Position numbers: made by a program. A stretch of 64,000 nucleotides of DNA from an uncultured Nitrospiraceae bacterium (GTDB taxonomy: Bacteria > Nitrospirota > Thermodesulfovibrionia > Thermodesulfovibrionales > Dissulfurispiraceae): the NCBI GenBank assembly GCA_947085205.1, contig CAMTVO010000010.1:1-64000 (forward strand), in the 5' to 3' direction. Of the stretch, positions 39,001 through 45,000 are shown one piece after another (positions within the stretch are counted from its first letter, which is position 1; each line of letters opens with the position of its first letter).

Positions 39001-42000
39001 TTCTCGAAAAGAAGATGAGCGGAGAATCACCGTTTTATATGTTAGGCCCTATAACCACAGACATTGCGCCCGGATATGACCATATAACATCAGCCATTGG
39101 CGCAGCCCTTTCATCTGCCTATGGCGCGGACTTTATCTGTTATGTTACGCCCGCAGAGCATTTAGGGCTGCCATTTCCAGAGGATGTTAAGCAGGGTGTT
39201 ATTACAGCAAGGATTGCAGCATATATCGGAGATATGGTCAAACTGAAAAAACGGGACAGGGACAAGGAGATGTCCATTGCAAGGAGAGACCTCGACTGGC
39301 AGAAGCAGTTCGAACTGGCAATCGCAAAGGACGAGGCAATAAGGATCAGAAGTGAAAGACAGCCGTCCTTCGAAGACTCATGCACCATGTGCGGCCAGTT
39401 CTGCGCATCAAGAATACTGAAGGGAATGTTTGATGATGAAATAAAGAGAGGTGGAAAACTTTAAAGGTATTTCACTGTATTTCCTTAATTATCAGCATTT
39501 TTCTATTGACAAGTATAGCTTATAACTGGTATAAAGTCATGTTTATTTTTGATTGTGGACCTCAGATTTCAGATTTTAAAAATCTAAAATCATAAATTAT
39601 AAATCTAAAACTGGAGGTGTTAAAATGAGGCTTGGTGTTTTTATGAGCGATTTAAGGATTGGATCTGATATCCTTGACAGGTTAAGTGCCGAAAAACTCG
39701 GTATTATCCTTGTTGGTAATGGCGTCTATCATGCAACTGTTAAGGAAAACGGTAGAGGTTCTTCCATTCTCGACAAATCTGCGACTTTCTATGTACTTAC
39801 AGAAGACATGGAAAGCCGTGGGCTAAGCTCTGCAAGTGTAGACAGTCGCGTAAAGCCTGTCACTTACAGTGATGTGGTTGACCTCATATTCGATGACTAC
39901 GAAAAAATAATATGGATATAAAAAGGAGGCAGTTATGGGAAAATTAACAATTGGCTGCTTTTCATCATTAGTGGGTTCATTGTCCCTTGACTTTGCAGTA
40001 AAGCTCTCGGAAGTAGCCGTAAAAAAAGGCCATAAGGTCGATTTATGGGTATCAGGAAACGCTACAATGCTTTCAAAAAAGGGTCAGAGGGCTTTTAAGG
40101 ATTATTCATCTCTCCAGAAGACATTAAAAGAATTATTGGAAACCGGCAGCTTTCAGATGACAGCCTGCGAGGCATGTGCCGAGGCAAGAGGTTATCACAA
40201 GGAAGACACAATGGAAGGCTGTAAAAGGTTTAGTATGGACTGGTATCTTGCAAGCTGTTTCAGTGCAGATAGAGTGCTTCTCATAGGAGGTGATTAATAT
40301 GGCTATTAAAAAATTTGCCTTTATCATCAGGTCGCTCCCCTATAAAACAGAGGCATCAAGGCTTGCGATGACACATGCAATTGCAAGTCAATCGGTTGAA
40401 ATATATTTGGAGGACGGAGACAATGTAGAGCCGGTTGTCTGCTTTATTGGCGATGGCGTATTCAATTGCCTAAAAAACCAGCAGGCAATGAAACACTACG
40501 GTATTACAAGCCTGGAACAACATATAAAGAACAGCCTTCTCCTTGATCTGAATATTATGATATGCAAGGAAGACATCGACAGATTTGGCATCACAGAAGA
40601 TTCCCTCATTATGGATGCAGAGGATATCGGAGGAGAGACAAATGCCCGGATTGTCCCATATAGCGAGATTGCAAAAATAATGGAATCCGTAGATCACCTG
40701 CAGTTTTTTTAAGAACTATACAAGATAAGGAGGATTTAAAAAATGTCAGACTTAAAGTCACAGACGCCAACAGAAACTTTAGATGTATTAGGAAGGGTTT
40801 GTCCCTATCCATTAGTTTTAACAAAAAAGGCCCTTGAAAAGTTACCGAGCGGTTCTATACTTAAAATTATGACCGATGCTCCTGCATCAGCGGAGGATTC
40901 AATACCAAGGTTTGCTGAAAAGCAGGGCTGCGAGATTGAATCAGTAAAACTCGAGGACAAAGGCTATTGGGAGATTTACTTAAAGAAAAAATAATCGAGC
41001 AGATAAAAAAAGGCGCTGAGTTTTTCTCAGCGCCTTTTTTTATGAATCTTTTAAATCTCAGTTATCGTAATTGCATTAGGTGCGCAGACCTGCAAACATG
41101 TCTCACAAAAAACACATTCAGATGACTGATACGGATCAGACTTTCCGTCAACCATTCTAAATACTTCTTGCGGACATTGATTGACACACTCTTCGCATCC
41201 TTCACACTTAGCTGTATCCACTGTCACAATGTACATCTTCTAATCACCTCCCTAATAATTTCATCTACTTAAGTCTATAATCATTACTTCTGAGGAACTA
41301 TCTTTTTAGCCCCTACATAATCATGACACCTGTTACAGAACTTATCAATTTCCATGTGACAGCCGAGACACTCCTCCATTTTCATCTTACCAGCACTCAG
41401 TTTGTCCATATGGGTGGCTACCCATTCCCTTGTTGGTTTATGGTAATCAGGAGCAGGTAATCCTTCCATTACCTCAAGTGCAAGTGGCCCTTTCCCTTTT
41501 ACCGCAGGTTTTTCAATCTTTTGACATGCAACAGAAAACAGGACAACGAGGACTAACAGTGCAACAAAAGCTTTGAACCTTAAACCTTGAACTTTAAACA
41601 TATTATACCCCCTCTTTTGCGCCAAGTACTATTGCCCTGCCTACTAACTGATGTATCCCTCCGACCTCTTCCATCGGATAGCCATAAGTTGGGAACATCT
41701 TGCTCATTTGCGCCTTGCAAATTGCACAGATAAGGGCAAGGAAGTTTACATCGTGGCTGTCCTTTACTGCCTTTACTGCCTGCATCCTCGGCATGGCTCC
41801 CTTCACCCTTATTGGCAGCATATCATCACCGAGGAGCCCCTGCCCTGCACCACAACAGAATGTCTTTTCTTTGATTGTATTTTCAGGCATGTCAACATAC
41901 TTATTAACACACGCCTTTATTACTGCCCTCGGTATCTCGTATTGTCCGTGTGCTGAACCTCCCATCTCCATTCCCCTCGCAACCTGACAGGAGTCATGGA

Positions 42001-45000
42001 AGGTTACGGTAAACGCATCATTTGCAGACTTATCAAGCTTCAAAGCGCCTTTATTTATAAGGTCAAGTGTAAATTCGCATATATGTTGAGGTATCGGGTG
42101 CTTCGGGTCAAGAAAGTCAAATGGTCCCCATAATGTGTTACTGTATGAGGACAGCACCCTCCACATATGACCACACTCACCACCTACAACCCTTTTAACA
42201 CCTAACTCCCTCGCTGCATCCCATATCCTCTTGTTGATAATTTTTACATGGTTGTAGTTGCTTGAAAATAATCCGAAGTTTCCACCCTCTGATGCATATG
42301 TGCTCATTGTCCAACTGATGCCTGCCTGGTGAAAGACCTTTGCATACCCGTAGAGGGATTCAATATGGGGCGATGCGAAAAAGTCTGCTGAAGGTGTCAC
42401 AAAAAGCACTTCTGCACCCTTTACATCCAGCGGGATCTTTATATCCATTCCTGTCTGGTCTTTCAAATCACTCTCTACAAATTCAATGGAATTTCTCACA
42501 GCATCAGGAATCATACCGAGATTGTTTCCTATATACTGAGCCTTATCAATAATCTCGTGCATATACTTCTGGACCAGTCCAACGCTGTTGAGGATCTCCC
42601 TTGCAGCCATTGTAATCTCTGCTGTATCTATTCCGTAAGGGCAAAAGACAGAGCAGCGTCTGCATTCAGAACACTGATAGAAATAGATATACCATAATGC
42701 AAGCAGCTCTTCACTTAACTCTTCAGCAGCGCCGAGAGACTTGCCAAATACTTTGCCCGGGGTTGTGAAGTATCTCCTGTAAACCCTCCTCATCAACTCT
42801 GCCCTTGCAACAGGCATATTGAGGGCGTCTTTGGTCCCGAGGAAGAAATGGCACTTGTCTGCGCATGCGCCGCATCTCACGCATATATCCATGAAGAGCT
42901 TCACAGACCTGTATTTCCGTAATATTTCATCGAATTTCTCAAGGAACTTTGTCTTCCAGTCAGGGATGAGTCCTTCTATTGGATAGCCAAGCCTCTGCAG
43001 GGCATCTTTATTTTTAAAGAGCTGTGATGTGTACTTTCTGGATGCAAACTCTTCTATCTTTGGAGTTTCTACCATTCCTGTAAGATCAGGCACTTCGTAT
43101 TTTATCTTTTCCCATTTAATTAACTCTTCCACATTCTTCTCTACTTCTGTCCCCATTTTTCCCTCCATTGCTCCATTGACCATGGTTTGTAGGCATCAGG
43201 TTTTCCTTCAGCCTCTGCCAGTCTTTTACCCCACTCCTCATCTGCCCATGGATTGATATGTCTCTTTGTCCTCGGGTTGTTGACCATTGCCCTTGTTGGT
43301 GTTATGAAAACACCTCCGGCATGCATCAGCTTACTAAACGGAAAGAGGAAAATCAAAAGCAACACCATTATAAGATGCAGAATAAACATGCCGTCCAGAG
43401 AGTCAGGCAAGGGTATGGGACTTAATGCCATTAAATGAAGCATAAAGTCCTTTATGTCTACAATAATAGGCCTTGCGACATATTTCATTATCAGTCCTGT
43501 TGTTCCGATTGCAATTATCAGTGCAGGATAAAGGTAATCCATAAAATTTGAAATATATCTTACTCTGTCAATAGCAAGTCTTCTTAACAGGAGATAGAGC
43601 AGTGAAAGAACCAGCGTGAATCCTGCATAAATTCCGATCTCTGAGAAAAACATAACCCATTCTGGAACAGGATAAAAGAAGTAGCGGAGATGCCTCAGAA
43701 TAACAATCAGGAATGAAAGATGAAAAATGTATCCACCAAGCCAGAGGCCTTTGTCCGCAGCAAAGAGACTCCGGAAAAGAACAACCTCGCTCAACACCCT
43801 CAGCGCTGTCCCCCCCTGTGTTACAGGAGCAGGTCCTGTCGGGATTTTAAGAGGATTTGGAGAGGCAAGCCATCTTGCAAAATGGCCAACAAAACCAATT
43901 ATGAAAATACATGTTACGGCATATACCAAAACTGCAAAAATAATTCTATCTGTTCCCATATGCTCCCCTCTCTAAAACAAAGGCAATGCCTTTATAAAAG
44001 CCATTGCCTTTGTTTTTAAATTGTTATCGGCTTTTCTGGGTTTACACGCAGCCTGTTGGCTTTGGCAGCCCTGCATATCTACATGCCTGTTTTGCAGGTC
44101 CATCTGGGAAGAGCTCGTAAAGGTACTTTGTATTGCCCTTCTCAGGTCCCATTATCTTGGCGATCTCCTTCACGAGGATCTTTATCATTGGGGCAATCTG
44201 ATATTTCTGATAGTAATCCCTCAGGAAGTTTATAACCTCCCAGTGGCCTTCTGTTAGCGTTAAACCATCCTGTTTTGCCATCTGCTCACCGAGATCCTTT
44301 GTCCAGTCGTCAAGGTTTACAAGATACCCGTCCTCGTCCACCTCGATTTGTTTCTCCTGAAAATCAACTGTTGGCATTGTGCTACCTCCTTTCTCTGTTT
44401 TAATTTTGTTGAAGATTATACTACTATCGATGGTTTTTATTCAAAACAAAAGTGGTAAGAAAATAATATAGACTTATAAGCCAGGTCAAATAAAATAATA
44501 TTATATATATATTTGCTATTTTTATTTATTCTGTTGAGTAACTATCTTATTTATTGCTTCTTTAACTATTTCGCTAACCGTTTTCTTTATCAGCTCTCCA
44601 TCATGATAAAAATTTATTGTGCTGGCATCGTTTACAAGGCTGCTTATATCCTCCGAAAGGATCTTCTCTCCAAGGATTCCGACAACCCATGCGGCATGTC
44701 CCCTGACAGAAGGATTGCTGTCCTTTATCATTAGCTGCAAATCTTTTAATATAAATTTAACAAGGTCCGGCCTAACAGCAGCTATCCGCCCCATTGCCCA
44801 TATTACGCCCGCCCTGAACATCTCTTCATCACGGAAAGACCATACTATGGGAATAATGTCGCTGAATTCATCCGGATCGCTTCTGATAATCTCCCCAAGC
44901 ATATCTGCGGCGCTCCATCCGATGCCTCCCGACTCCTCGCGCATAGACCACAAAAGTCTCCTGATTGTGTCCCTTATCACGTCTCTCCTGTCTCTTGACA

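Follow-up and report, generated by a model that had tools for sequence, protein, structure and literature searches.

Among the described systems closest to the locus reported here, DsrMKJOP (A. fulgidus structure, bioRxiv 10.64898/2026.08.25.746951; PMC10861901) combines a DsrM with four heme histidines and an arginine pair, a DsrK with one CCG domain and the GECGH motif defined in PMC10861901, and a periplasmic c-type cytochrome encoded after dsrK. Its oxidative version in sulfur-oxidising Pseudomonadota, DsrMKLJOP, includes DsrO, DsrP and a triheme DsrJ that has the Cys, and shows a proline in TMH3. In cable bacteria dsrT and a reductive-type DsrMKJ are retained, next to a separate DsrOhPh-tetraheme locus (PMC13047784; bioRxiv 10.64898/2026.08.25.746951). 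There are also basal oxidative-type 'dsrMK only' lineages (PMC10504309; Desulfurella, PMC6378623), in which an oxidative-type DsrMK accompanies DsrAB of reductive type and dsrJOP is not recognised; for example, an Anaerolineae genome is listed in PMC10504309 as K-M-C-B-A, no J. The DsrM-1 type DsrMK of Bacillota and archaea lacks JOP, and its DsrM is NarI-like with glycines. Papers of 2024 and 2026 treat as open questions what the addition of DsrJOP to DsrMK brings to many sulfur respirers and how energy is conserved at this step.

The window, a stretch of 64,000 nucleotides from the genome of an uncultured Nitrospiraceae bacterium (G000), holds at the same place of the dsr cluster a minus-strand trio of intact ORFs, dsrM, dsrK and a small cytochrome gene, which fills the gap between dsrC and a ferredoxin gene (Table 1). 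The closed-genome relative G007 has dsrT-M-K-J-O-P at the equivalent place in the synteny comparison, and DNA alignment to it ends at 41251 and restarts at 44043, with only short dsrK patches in between. The intact ORFs and this break uphold the survey's finding of a three-gene module at the dsrMKJOP site. Besides J, O and P, dsrT is lost as well: none of the four was found in G000 (90% complete), and the locus lacks the dsrJ, dsrO and dsrP by which a DsrMKJOP operon is recognised. One nt separates the stop of dsrK from the cytochrome gene, whose ribosome site falls within the end of dsrK. An assembly artefact is ruled out by the contiguous region, the intact ORFs and a GC content like that of the flanks; G040, a single contig 99% complete in which the module is present and canonical DsrJ absent, also counts against it.

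Table 1. Features of the module and its surroundings (positions in the window)
Feature	Position	Strand	Basis or remark
dsrH/E/F-like genes and tusA; context	39625..40994	+	common to canonical-operon relatives
Terminator-like hairpin, two-way, between ferredoxin gene and tusA	41003..41043	.	18-pair stem, T runs both sides
2x[4Fe-4S] ferredoxin, 61 aa; downstream flank	41051..41236	-	89% to G007
Di-heme c-type cytochrome, predicted lipoprotein, DsrJ-like, 105 aa	41284..41601	-	two CxxCH
CxxCH-x6-CxxCH-x-YVG, two heme sites and predicted DsrM-docking tail	41311..41370	-	invariant columns; interface residues 92-98
His54-x5-Trp60-x3-His64, predicted distal heme ligands	41410..41442	-	conservation; putative ligation
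Cys26, predicted lipid attachment	41524..41526	-	lipobox-like pattern
dsrK, oxidative-type, ~517 aa	41603..43156	-	ORF open from 43183; best ribosome site lies just before 43156
DsrK CAIC, Cys as last CCG ligand	41717..41728	-	Asp in canonical class DsrK
DsrK catalytic GECGH motif	42167..42181	-	motif read in sequence
dsrM, short oxidative-type form, 272 aa	43141..43959	-	PF02665 E 6.9e-14; NCBIfam DsrM 185 bits, below cut-off 300
DsrM R89-H90-L91-R92	43684..43695	-	alignment to NarI and 78 DsrM-family rows
dsrC, both C-terminal cysteines present; upstream flank	44042..44377	-	PF04358 E 4e-46; 92% to G007
HEAT-repeat gene, dsrN, dsrD, dsrB, dsrA; context	44522..50002	-	DsrA 94%, DsrB 91% to G007

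The dsrH/E/F-like genes appear to resemble type II DsrEFH (PMC13293266). Together with tusA they were considered as a mark of operon type and rejected, since they flank module and canonical operon alike. The hairpin is merely suggestive as a terminator: the site scan yields no more than shuffles, and promoter and terminator counts lie within the shuffle range. In one metatranscriptome (0.07 word share), short contigs of close relatives fall on dsrK and dsrM; none of those listed bridges genes, and they were not counted as evidence.

DsrK scores 567 bits against its NCBIfam model (cut-off 400) and carries the two ferredoxin-type clusters, the single CCG domain and the GECGH motif that characterise its class. 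Among the DsrK sequences in which the motif matched, the last CCG ligand is Cys in 104/104 module and 52/52 sulfur-oxidiser copies and Asp in 30/30 canonical ones. Identity is 55-58% to DsrK of sulfur-oxidiser operons vs 46-52% to canonical copies of the class. In a quick tree, built like the DsrM tree without true DsrM-1 and Desulfurella sequences, a 40-row clade joins module with sulfur-oxidiser DsrK (SH-aLRT 99), and canonical DsrK stands apart at 100. The module proteins had been described as a divergent DsrMK; they are not simply divergent, as by tree and identity they group with the known oxidative-type clade. The two-class split of DsrK was borne out: of the 201 genomes of the class, 32 (G000 among them) have a DsrK at 64% identity or higher, and every other match listed lies at 56% or below. 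A plasmid search with the reference DsrK returned one distant match only.

DsrM is a NarI-family membrane protein encoded ahead of dsrK, with the four heme histidines of its class (His80, 90, 195 and 213, invariant in 63 relatives). It is 43-48% identical to sulfur-oxidiser DsrM vs 33-38% to canonical class DsrM. Next to the heme ligand on the periplasm side, where NarI has glycine, it carries the arginines R89 and R92. Among 63 module DsrM, R92 does not vary and R89 hardly does; G003 has Gly at the R89 position. We infer that these are the 'two arginines' that a preprint (bioRxiv 10.64898/2026.08.25.746951) places at the NarI quinol site. The NarI-like glycines of this site, expected in the quinol-oxidising DsrM-1, are absent. 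From the features of DsrM-2, in which the site is blocked, the arginine pair is present, and in the alignment of 78 DsrM-family rows neither the 10-residue TMH3 insertion nor the helix-breaking proline comes after it. Because both helix-breaking signatures reported to block the site are absent, this DsrM may still oxidise quinol.

For the cytochrome family no description was found in the literature searched. As the survey reported, the protein has no Pfam match; the NCBIfam DsrJ model nonetheless matches it weakly (E 5.6e-5). The family profile gives 23-39 bits with 35/35 reductive DsrJ and at most 10 bits with 24/24 other multiheme proteins, and profile-profile comparison with oxidative DsrJ covers 45 columns at probability 97.8. 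The median of oxidative DsrJ against the family profile is only 15 bits, and the non-Dsr repeat cytochrome P0065 scores 30.5 bits, level with DsrJ. A tail resembling its YVG end occurs in 63/66 DsrJ. G000 has two CxxCH instead of the three of DsrJ, and in place of the axial Cys (Cys-x10-His in 65/66 DsrJ) the cytochrome has His-x9-His, with His54 aligning one column off that Cys; tolerance of DsrJ C45H in N. vulgaris was counted for the DsrJ-like reading. Judging from these comparisons, the cytochrome is probably a two-heme relative of DsrJ that lacks heme 3 and has a His near the axial Cys position. The statement that G000 has no dsrJ, O or P thus holds for the canonical genes and is overstated for dsrJ.

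In 52 relatives W60 and H64 are invariant and H54 is conserved in at least 90%. The lipobox-like pattern is found in most non-Chloroflexota members; in the majority of Anaerolineae members this Cys is absent. By motif count, 78 of 107 family members have two hemes, 24 have four and five have three; in the four-heme forms the YVG tail stands in the first repeat only (3/3 shown). Fold searches with an AlphaFold model (pLDDT 92) gave no match, and in an Atlas search the clusters at 0.93-0.94 were unnamed, with c7/c3-type leads staying below 0.9. A PDB sequence search gave only matches at E 0.4 or worse, and no DsrJ chain was found there by sequence.

Binding of the cytochrome to DsrM is predicted by a complex model and by two gene fusions of a DsrM-like domain with the cytochrome (P0039, P0071). 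The model docks the pair at 0.64 (best control 0.00), a value reached by 116/157 solved vs 2/215 mismatched pairs; it is a model confidence obtained outside that calibration, with own alignments and with hemes carried along, and the likeness to DsrM-DsrJ may lie behind it. Partner pLDDT is 81-83, and at least 95% of contacts agree between runs, linking DsrM R92, 96-106 and 163-180 to cytochrome residues 26-33, 58-66 and 92-98.

The claim that this cytochrome, often with four hemes, is tied to this DsrK type was confirmed on a larger set. It follows module-type DsrK in 27 of the 30 class loci read (three end at contig ends; 11 have four hemes). A wider set of 80 named loci covers Nitrospirota, Chloroflexota and six smaller lineages, and in 75 of them it stands directly after dsrK. 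Three of the other five are cut by contig ends, one has a fragmented dsrK and one has dsrM directly before the cytochrome. Canonical dsrT, J, O or P occur in 0/80 named loci. Within the class, canonical DsrJ passes the cut-off in 3/32 module-DsrK genomes vs 155/169 others, and those three have a second, complete operon elsewhere. The module spans at least eight named lineages and is not the class-level oddity it had seemed; four-heme forms occur in magnetotactic Nitrospirota. On a 54-genome tree, module and canonical operon were swapped in at least 11 changes. G000 looks like a case of replacement of the canonical operon, because it nests among canonical-operon genomes in the RpoB tree. Its lineage most likely took the module in place of dsrTMKJOP, which fits the replacement in place proposed by the survey.

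How does this module compare with the known systems? It shares the listed features of DsrM, DsrK and cytochrome position with DsrMKJOP, and differs in having no dsrT, O or P, no TMH3 insertion in DsrM, Cys for Asp500 in DsrK, and a cytochrome of two hemes with no axial Cys and a predicted lipid anchor. The closest DsrM and DsrK outside the module are those of DsrMKLJOP, alike in short DsrM and CAIC ligand and unlike in the DsrJ, DsrO, DsrP and proline noted above. The 'dsrMK only' lineages resemble it in DsrMK and DsrAB; the conserved cytochrome gene after dsrK is not mentioned in the sections of PMC10504309 considered here. Some DsrM-1 type enzymes also have Cys as last CCG ligand, but the module has arginines instead of glycines, and a cytochrome partner. 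With cable bacteria it shares an M-K-cytochrome operon with OP unlinked and, in most module genomes, a tetraheme-O-like-P-like locus elsewhere; it differs in its oxidative-type DsrMK, its distinct di-heme family and the absence of dsrT. Cable-bacterial DsrMKJ is a precedent for a complex without linked OP, so the module is not strictly a third configuration of the Dsr membrane complex.

We consider it fairly probable that the three products form a DsrM-DsrK-cytochrome complex wired to periplasmic carriers and not to DsrOP, with partner and direction unproven. DsrK would perform the DsrC sulfur chemistry on the cytoplasmic side, and DsrM would move electrons across the membrane via its two hemes. 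The periplasmic cytochrome, anchored in the membrane and carrying two putatively bis-His hemes (four in some lineages), would occupy the outer face of DsrM as DsrJ does. It would exchange electrons with periplasmic carriers and not with the quinol site of an attached DsrOP, and the quinol site of DsrM itself would be blocked. The partner that connects to quinone would be separate and variable. In many lineages it may be a Rieske/cytochrome b or a Rieske plus Qrc-like unit of the same operon; a Rieske gene comes next after the module in 53/80 loci from seven phylum-level groups. A large conserved protein sits behind the Rieske unit. In Thermodesulfovibrionia this role would probably fall to a soluble cytochrome or to a tetraheme-FeS-NrfD unit encoded elsewhere. 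No Rieske/cytochrome b was found in G000 (90% complete), and in its tetraheme-FeS-NrfD locus the FeS gene contains a TAA in frame. Genome-wide co-occurrence singles out no partner among cytochrome b (26/32 vs 23/32 in the class), the tetraheme-FeS-NrfD type (13/32 module vs 84/169 other genomes) and a DsrP paralogue (26/32 vs 67/169; within family f18, 10/12 vs 24/38). Use in G000 may be mainly reductive or disproportionating, by a small preference over oxidative.

The DsrP paralogue invites another explanation, in which a tetraheme-DsrO-like-DsrP-like unit encoded elsewhere attaches to the cytochrome, so that the chain from quinol to DsrK is complete again and function is canonical. The survey's DsrP-like gene elsewhere is real for most module genomes (24/32 above the DsrP cut-off), and in 15/15 loci fetched it sits in a tetraheme-O-like-P-like locus, as in cable bacteria; moreover, the tetraheme-FeS-NrfD locus of G000 is closest to the module genomes G181 (88%) and G122 (77%) rather than to G007 (60%). 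However, the paralogue was not found in G000, G122, G181, G101, G117 and G125 and is present in many other genomes, published modelling for cable bacteria spoke against a joint complex, and the missing third CxxCH would be the DsrO-facing heme. We regard this restored chain as quite improbable. Somewhat less remote, yet still unlikely, is a quinol-oxidising DsrMK working alone like DsrM-1/HdrED, with the cytochrome bound to it but off the main path, serving as a structural cap, an electron buffer or a side entry. The absent TMH3 insertion and proline, Gly at the R89 position in G003, a DsrK Cys ligand shared with dsrMK-only paralogues, thiosulfate respiration of Desulfurella with DsrMK and no JOP (PMC6378623) and the lack of an evident partner in G000 all speak for it. 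Against this stand the conserved R92 and R89, a model that puts the cytochrome tail on R92, and heme ligands strictly kept across phyla in a wire lengthened to four hemes in some lineages.

The oxidative type of DsrMK would also suit a module dedicated to sulfur oxidation, which would pass electrons of DsrC-bound sulfur out to cytochromes of the periplasm and mark its hosts as oxidisers. DsrL in 9/80 and type I DsrE in 7/80 loci, and the four-heme forms of magnetotactic Nitrospirota, hypothesised sulfur oxidisers, agree with this. But 71/80 loci show no dsrL, G000 has dsrD, no DsrL found and DsrAB 91-94% identical to canonical-operon relatives, DsrEFH-like genes lie beside both operon types, and Desulfurella uses oxidative-type DsrMK for reduction; we hold such dedication to be very improbable. 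As to origin, DsrMK plus di-heme cytochrome could be a surviving intermediate between DsrMK and DsrMKJOP and the stem state of the oxidative type, from which triheme DsrJ arose by gain of a heme and a Cys ligand as DsrOP was added; in its widespread form a true Rieske/cytochrome b Q-cycle would be joined to it, and among close relatives it would be interchangeable with dsrTMKJOP as a cassette. This scenario is doubtful, though worth keeping in mind. The best tree puts sulfur-oxidiser DsrK among the module sequences, but a monophyletic module could not be rejected (p-AU 0.33), and the nesting is not established.

A three-subunit complex of this kind would be a minimal variant provided by nature. 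As its cytochrome is small and expressible, the electron source of DsrM (quinol vs periplasmic heme) becomes testable. The swap of module and canonical operon among close relatives offers matched pairs for physiology. The 'dsrMK only' genomes of Chloroflexota and Nitrospirota may hold an unrecognised third subunit, and the Dsr complex of magnetotactic Nitrospirota would gain a specific wire of four hemes. The module would also link Dsr chemistry to Rieske/cytochrome b complexes. Its design is common to many uncultured bacteria, and it may show how the end step of sulfite respiration is coupled to energy conservation.

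The minus strand of the window carries, in this order, dsrA, dsrB, dsrD, dsrN, a HEAT-repeat gene, dsrC, dsrM, dsrK, the 105-aa gene and the ferredoxin gene. In the window sequence dsrM and dsrK overlap, and the gene of the cytochrome (the di-heme, DsrJ-like predicted lipoprotein) starts one base past the dsrK stop, with its own ribosome site within the end of dsrK. The survey's finding that this module lies in the place of the canonical operon is real: G007, a one-contig genome of the same family as G000, which holds the window, has the same flanks around dsrT-M-K-J-O-P, and DNA similarity between the two genomes ends at 41251 and returns at 44043, with only short patches in dsrK between. 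Neither tblastn nor family search revealed dsrT, J, O or P in G000 (90% complete); aprA and qmoC are present. Going by the names that its close homologues carry, the window probably belongs to Thermodesulfovibrionia (Nitrospirota). The zinc-ribbon/HEAT-repeat gene (DVU0298 family) and the convergent dsrH/E/F-like genes with tusA are common to both operon types, and these dsrH/E/F-like genes are probably the type II DsrEFH described in the accessible part of PMC13293266.

Coordinates of the features discussed (window positions unless a fetched locus, L, with its own coordinates is named)
Feature	Position	Strand	Remark
dsrM	43141-43959	minus	
dsrK	41603-43156	minus	ORF opening at 43183
105-aa cytochrome gene	41284-41601	minus	
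tusA and three dsrE/F/H-like genes	39625-40994		convergent with the dsr operon
Zinc-ribbon/HEAT-repeat gene	44522-45616		between dsrN and dsrC
Tetraheme-FeS-NrfD locus	L259:4933-7416		G000 contig C12
ExtKL-type cytochrome and facing operon	L260:3843-9267		G000 contig C38
[NiFe]-hydrogenase large subunit	L383:1363-3099		G000 contig C43; relatives' copies L385-L388
Anaerolineae operon	L085:10322-19810		
530-740 aa protein	L083:12460-14247; L085:15725-17800		
dsrM-cytochrome locus	L139:9208-12550		no dsrK in locus

DsrK at least 64% identical to that of the window occurs in 32 of the 201 genomes of the class sample, G000 counted; the other listed matches are all at or below 56%. The cytochrome follows dsrK in 27 of the best 30 loci, the remaining three ending at contig ends, and has four hemes in 11 of these class loci, which upholds the earlier claim that it is tied to this DsrK type and often four-heme. 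Canonical DsrJ scored above the cut-off in 158 of 201 class genomes, yet in just three of the 32 module genomes, each with a second, complete operon at another place. A weak DsrJ match appeared in 14 of the 32 and was confirmed to fall on the cytochrome in G000 only. Two genomes of family f6 (L147, L148) carry the module at the dsrC locus and a complete dsrTMKJOP elsewhere, beside tetraheme-FeS-NrfD units; genome G004 has the opposite arrangement.

How did these two operon types come to be distributed in this way? In an RpoB tree of 54 genomes, picked so that both types are represented, G000 is nested among genomes with the canonical operon, and for G000 the simplest reading is replacement of that operon by the module. 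In the class as a whole, both types may have been ancestral and then differentially lost; in the same tree one genus holds both, and at least 11 changes are required. The module itself is mosaic, as in genome G122, where DsrK is 85% like that of G000 but DsrM (43%) and the four-heme cytochrome resemble those of family f6.

Outside the group, the named DsrM matches were from Magnetococcales, Rubrivivax and Gammaproteobacteria, and metagenome loci found with the Rubrivivax protein had a complete dsrAB-EFH-C-M-K-L-J-O-P-N operon (15 of 15 among the matches listed). The window DsrK is 55-58% identical to DsrK of sulfur-oxidiser operons, whereas its identity to canonical class DsrK is 46-52%. A quick maximum-likelihood tree of 71 DsrK proteins united sulfur-oxidiser and Nitrospirota/Nitrospinota module DsrK in one clade (SH-aLRT 99), with module DsrK of Chloroflexota, KSB1 and Syntrophaceae outside it and canonical DsrK apart on a long branch; a test on 65 rows, without six distant outgroup rows, did not reject monophyly of all module DsrK (p-AU 0.33). 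Of the DsrK proteins with a motif match, 104 of the module and 52 of sulfur oxidisers have Cys as their last CCG ligand, and 30 canonical ones have Asp; Cys is also carried there by dsrMK-type paralogues, according to the accessible part of PMC10861901. Alignment places R89 and R92 of DsrM at the position of the glycine-lined quinol site of NarI, and the window DsrM lacks both the 10-residue insertion seen in canonical DsrM and the proline seen in the sulfur-oxidiser form. The available text of the 2026 preprint (bioRxiv 10.64898/2026.08.25.746951) describes this site as blocked by arginines plus insertion, or by proline. Judged by its sequence, the window DsrM bears half of the blocking signature, namely the arginines and not the insertion or proline, so that the site may be either blocked or open.

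The cytochrome has a predicted signal peptide to Cys26, His54, Trp60, His64 and two CxxCH motifs. It matched no Pfam family, and its NCBIfam matches were weak (DsrJ, E 5.6e-5; QrcA, E 0.003). Against the profile of its family, 35 of 35 reductive DsrJ scored 23-39 bits, oxidative DsrJ (n=31) a median of 15 bits and other multiheme proteins (n=24) no more than 10; profile-profile alignment with oxidative DsrJ covered 45 columns, conserved-His helix included. Because the repeat cytochrome P0065 scores 30.5 bits with this profile, the di-heme core may be a building block common to DsrJ and other cytochromes. In a joint alignment His64 coincides with the conserved His of DsrJ, and both CxxCH motifs and the tail also match; His54 misses the DsrJ axial Cys by one column, and there is no third CxxCH. 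A Cys-to-His change at this axial Cys did not impair N. vulgaris, according to the same preprint text (bioRxiv 10.64898/2026.08.25.746951).

The AlphaFold model of the cytochrome is confident, small and helical, and its fold search gave no usable PDB match. Prediction of the DsrM-cytochrome complex with hemes scored 0.64 versus 0.00 for the best control, a mark met by 116 of 157 solved pairs and 2 of 215 mismatched pairs; contact agreement between runs was at least 95%, and partner pLDDT 81-83. The YVG tail of the cytochrome is packed on R92, 96-106 and 163-171 of DsrM. This model supports, but does not show, binding to DsrM, and resemblance to DsrM-DsrJ could add to the score. Four-heme forms keep the YVG tail in the first repeat only (3 of 3 shown), as would be expected if the second repeat extends the wire outward.

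Beyond the class, 68 cytochrome relatives were found among 50%-identity representatives, and a GTDB genome scan confirmed 144; some sequences occur in both the class and GTDB counts. The best 80 of these 144, on which the following locus counts rest, come from Nitrospirota (magnetotactic genera included), Chloroflexota, Nitrospinota, KSB1, Ca. Tariuqbacter, Ignavibacteria and two deltaproteobacterial lineages. Of these 80 loci, 75 have dsrK immediately before the cytochrome, none shows a canonical dsrT, J, O or P, and 53 have a Rieske gene no more than 450 bases past the cytochrome (Chloroflexota 39/44, Nitrospirota 9/29, others 5/7). After Rieske come either cytochrome b, subunit IV and a mono-heme protein, or a mono-heme protein and then a molybdopterin/FeS/NrfD unit. 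The Anaerolineae operon has Rieske without cytochrome b, a mono-heme protein and Qrc-like molybdopterin/FeS/NrfD, often with an HmcEF-like pair. Behind the Rieske unit, 43 of the 80 loci encode a 530-740 aa protein with no family match and weak TPR-like leads. Two proteins (P0039, P0071) have a DsrM-like domain fused to the cytochrome; in others it is fused to more heme domains of planctomycete, cbb3 or multiheme type (L065, L066, L072, L089; P0029, P0017). At L139, which has no dsrK, a divergent dsrM stands immediately before the cytochrome gene; next come a mono-heme protein and the large protein also encoded behind the Rieske unit. Most non-Chloroflexota cytochromes have a lipobox-like Cys, and most Anaerolineae members have none.

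The catalytic residues of DsrK and heme residues of DsrM are retained, so the DsrC-DsrK-DsrM chain should be intact. With no DsrOP and a cytochrome that is predicted to cap the outer heme, electrons would most likely enter or leave via the periplasm. Of the candidate partners, the Rieske/cytochrome b unit, operon neighbour of the module in many lineages, was not found in G000; nor was the DsrP paralogue of a tetraheme-O-like-P-like locus, present in 26 of 32 module genomes versus 67 of 169 others. G000 has a c7-type cytochrome and a tetraheme-FeS-NrfD locus of another type, closest to loci of module genomes. Its NrfD is 88% identical to that of G181, from another family, and 60% to that of G007; these sequences hint that the locus may have been transferred together with the module. 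The sole clear in-frame stop among 47 gene places checked is in its FeS gene, a TAA at a position that is Tyr in three relatives. As regards reductive or oxidative use, G000 has dsrD, several thiosulfate/polysulfide-reductase-like enzymes, an ExtKL cytochrome and an NrfA-like protein; DsrL was not found in G000, and dsrL occurs in 9 of the best 80 loci. The ExtKL-type multiheme cytochrome faces a thiosulfate/polysulfide-reductase-like operon.

Separately, in five of five gene-bearing genomes examined (G000, G007, G044, G100, G122), the gene of the [NiFe]-hydrogenase large subunit reads TGA where the N-terminal nickel motif, RxCGxC, would have its two Cys. The codons lie amid synonymous changes, the C-terminal motif retains Cys and G000 has tRNA-Sec; the sequences suggest two selenocysteines at an unusual place, and a literature search on this listed no title of relevance. 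The G000 copy has an extra TAG at a Glu position of its relatives.

Combinations of this kind have precedents. The accessible part of PMC10504309 describes basal lineages having reductive DsrAB with oxidative-type dsrMK alone, and tabulates a Chloroflexota operon of the dsrMK-only kind with DsrJ absent. Cable bacteria have DsrMKJ with OP not linked (available parts of bioRxiv 10.64898/2026.08.25.746951 and PMC13047784). The cytochrome family was not described in literature searched mostly outside subscription papers, including the accessible parts of PMC10861901, PMC13293266, PMC11406059, bioRxiv 10.1101/2023.06.27.546762, PMC5812927, PMC10839748, PMC8359478, PMC8477390, PMC6378623, PMC9326234 and PMC4959651, and is apparently undescribed. 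As a variant of the Dsr membrane complex the module is real and widespread, and the most fitting name for it is DsrMK with a two-heme DsrJ-like subunit.
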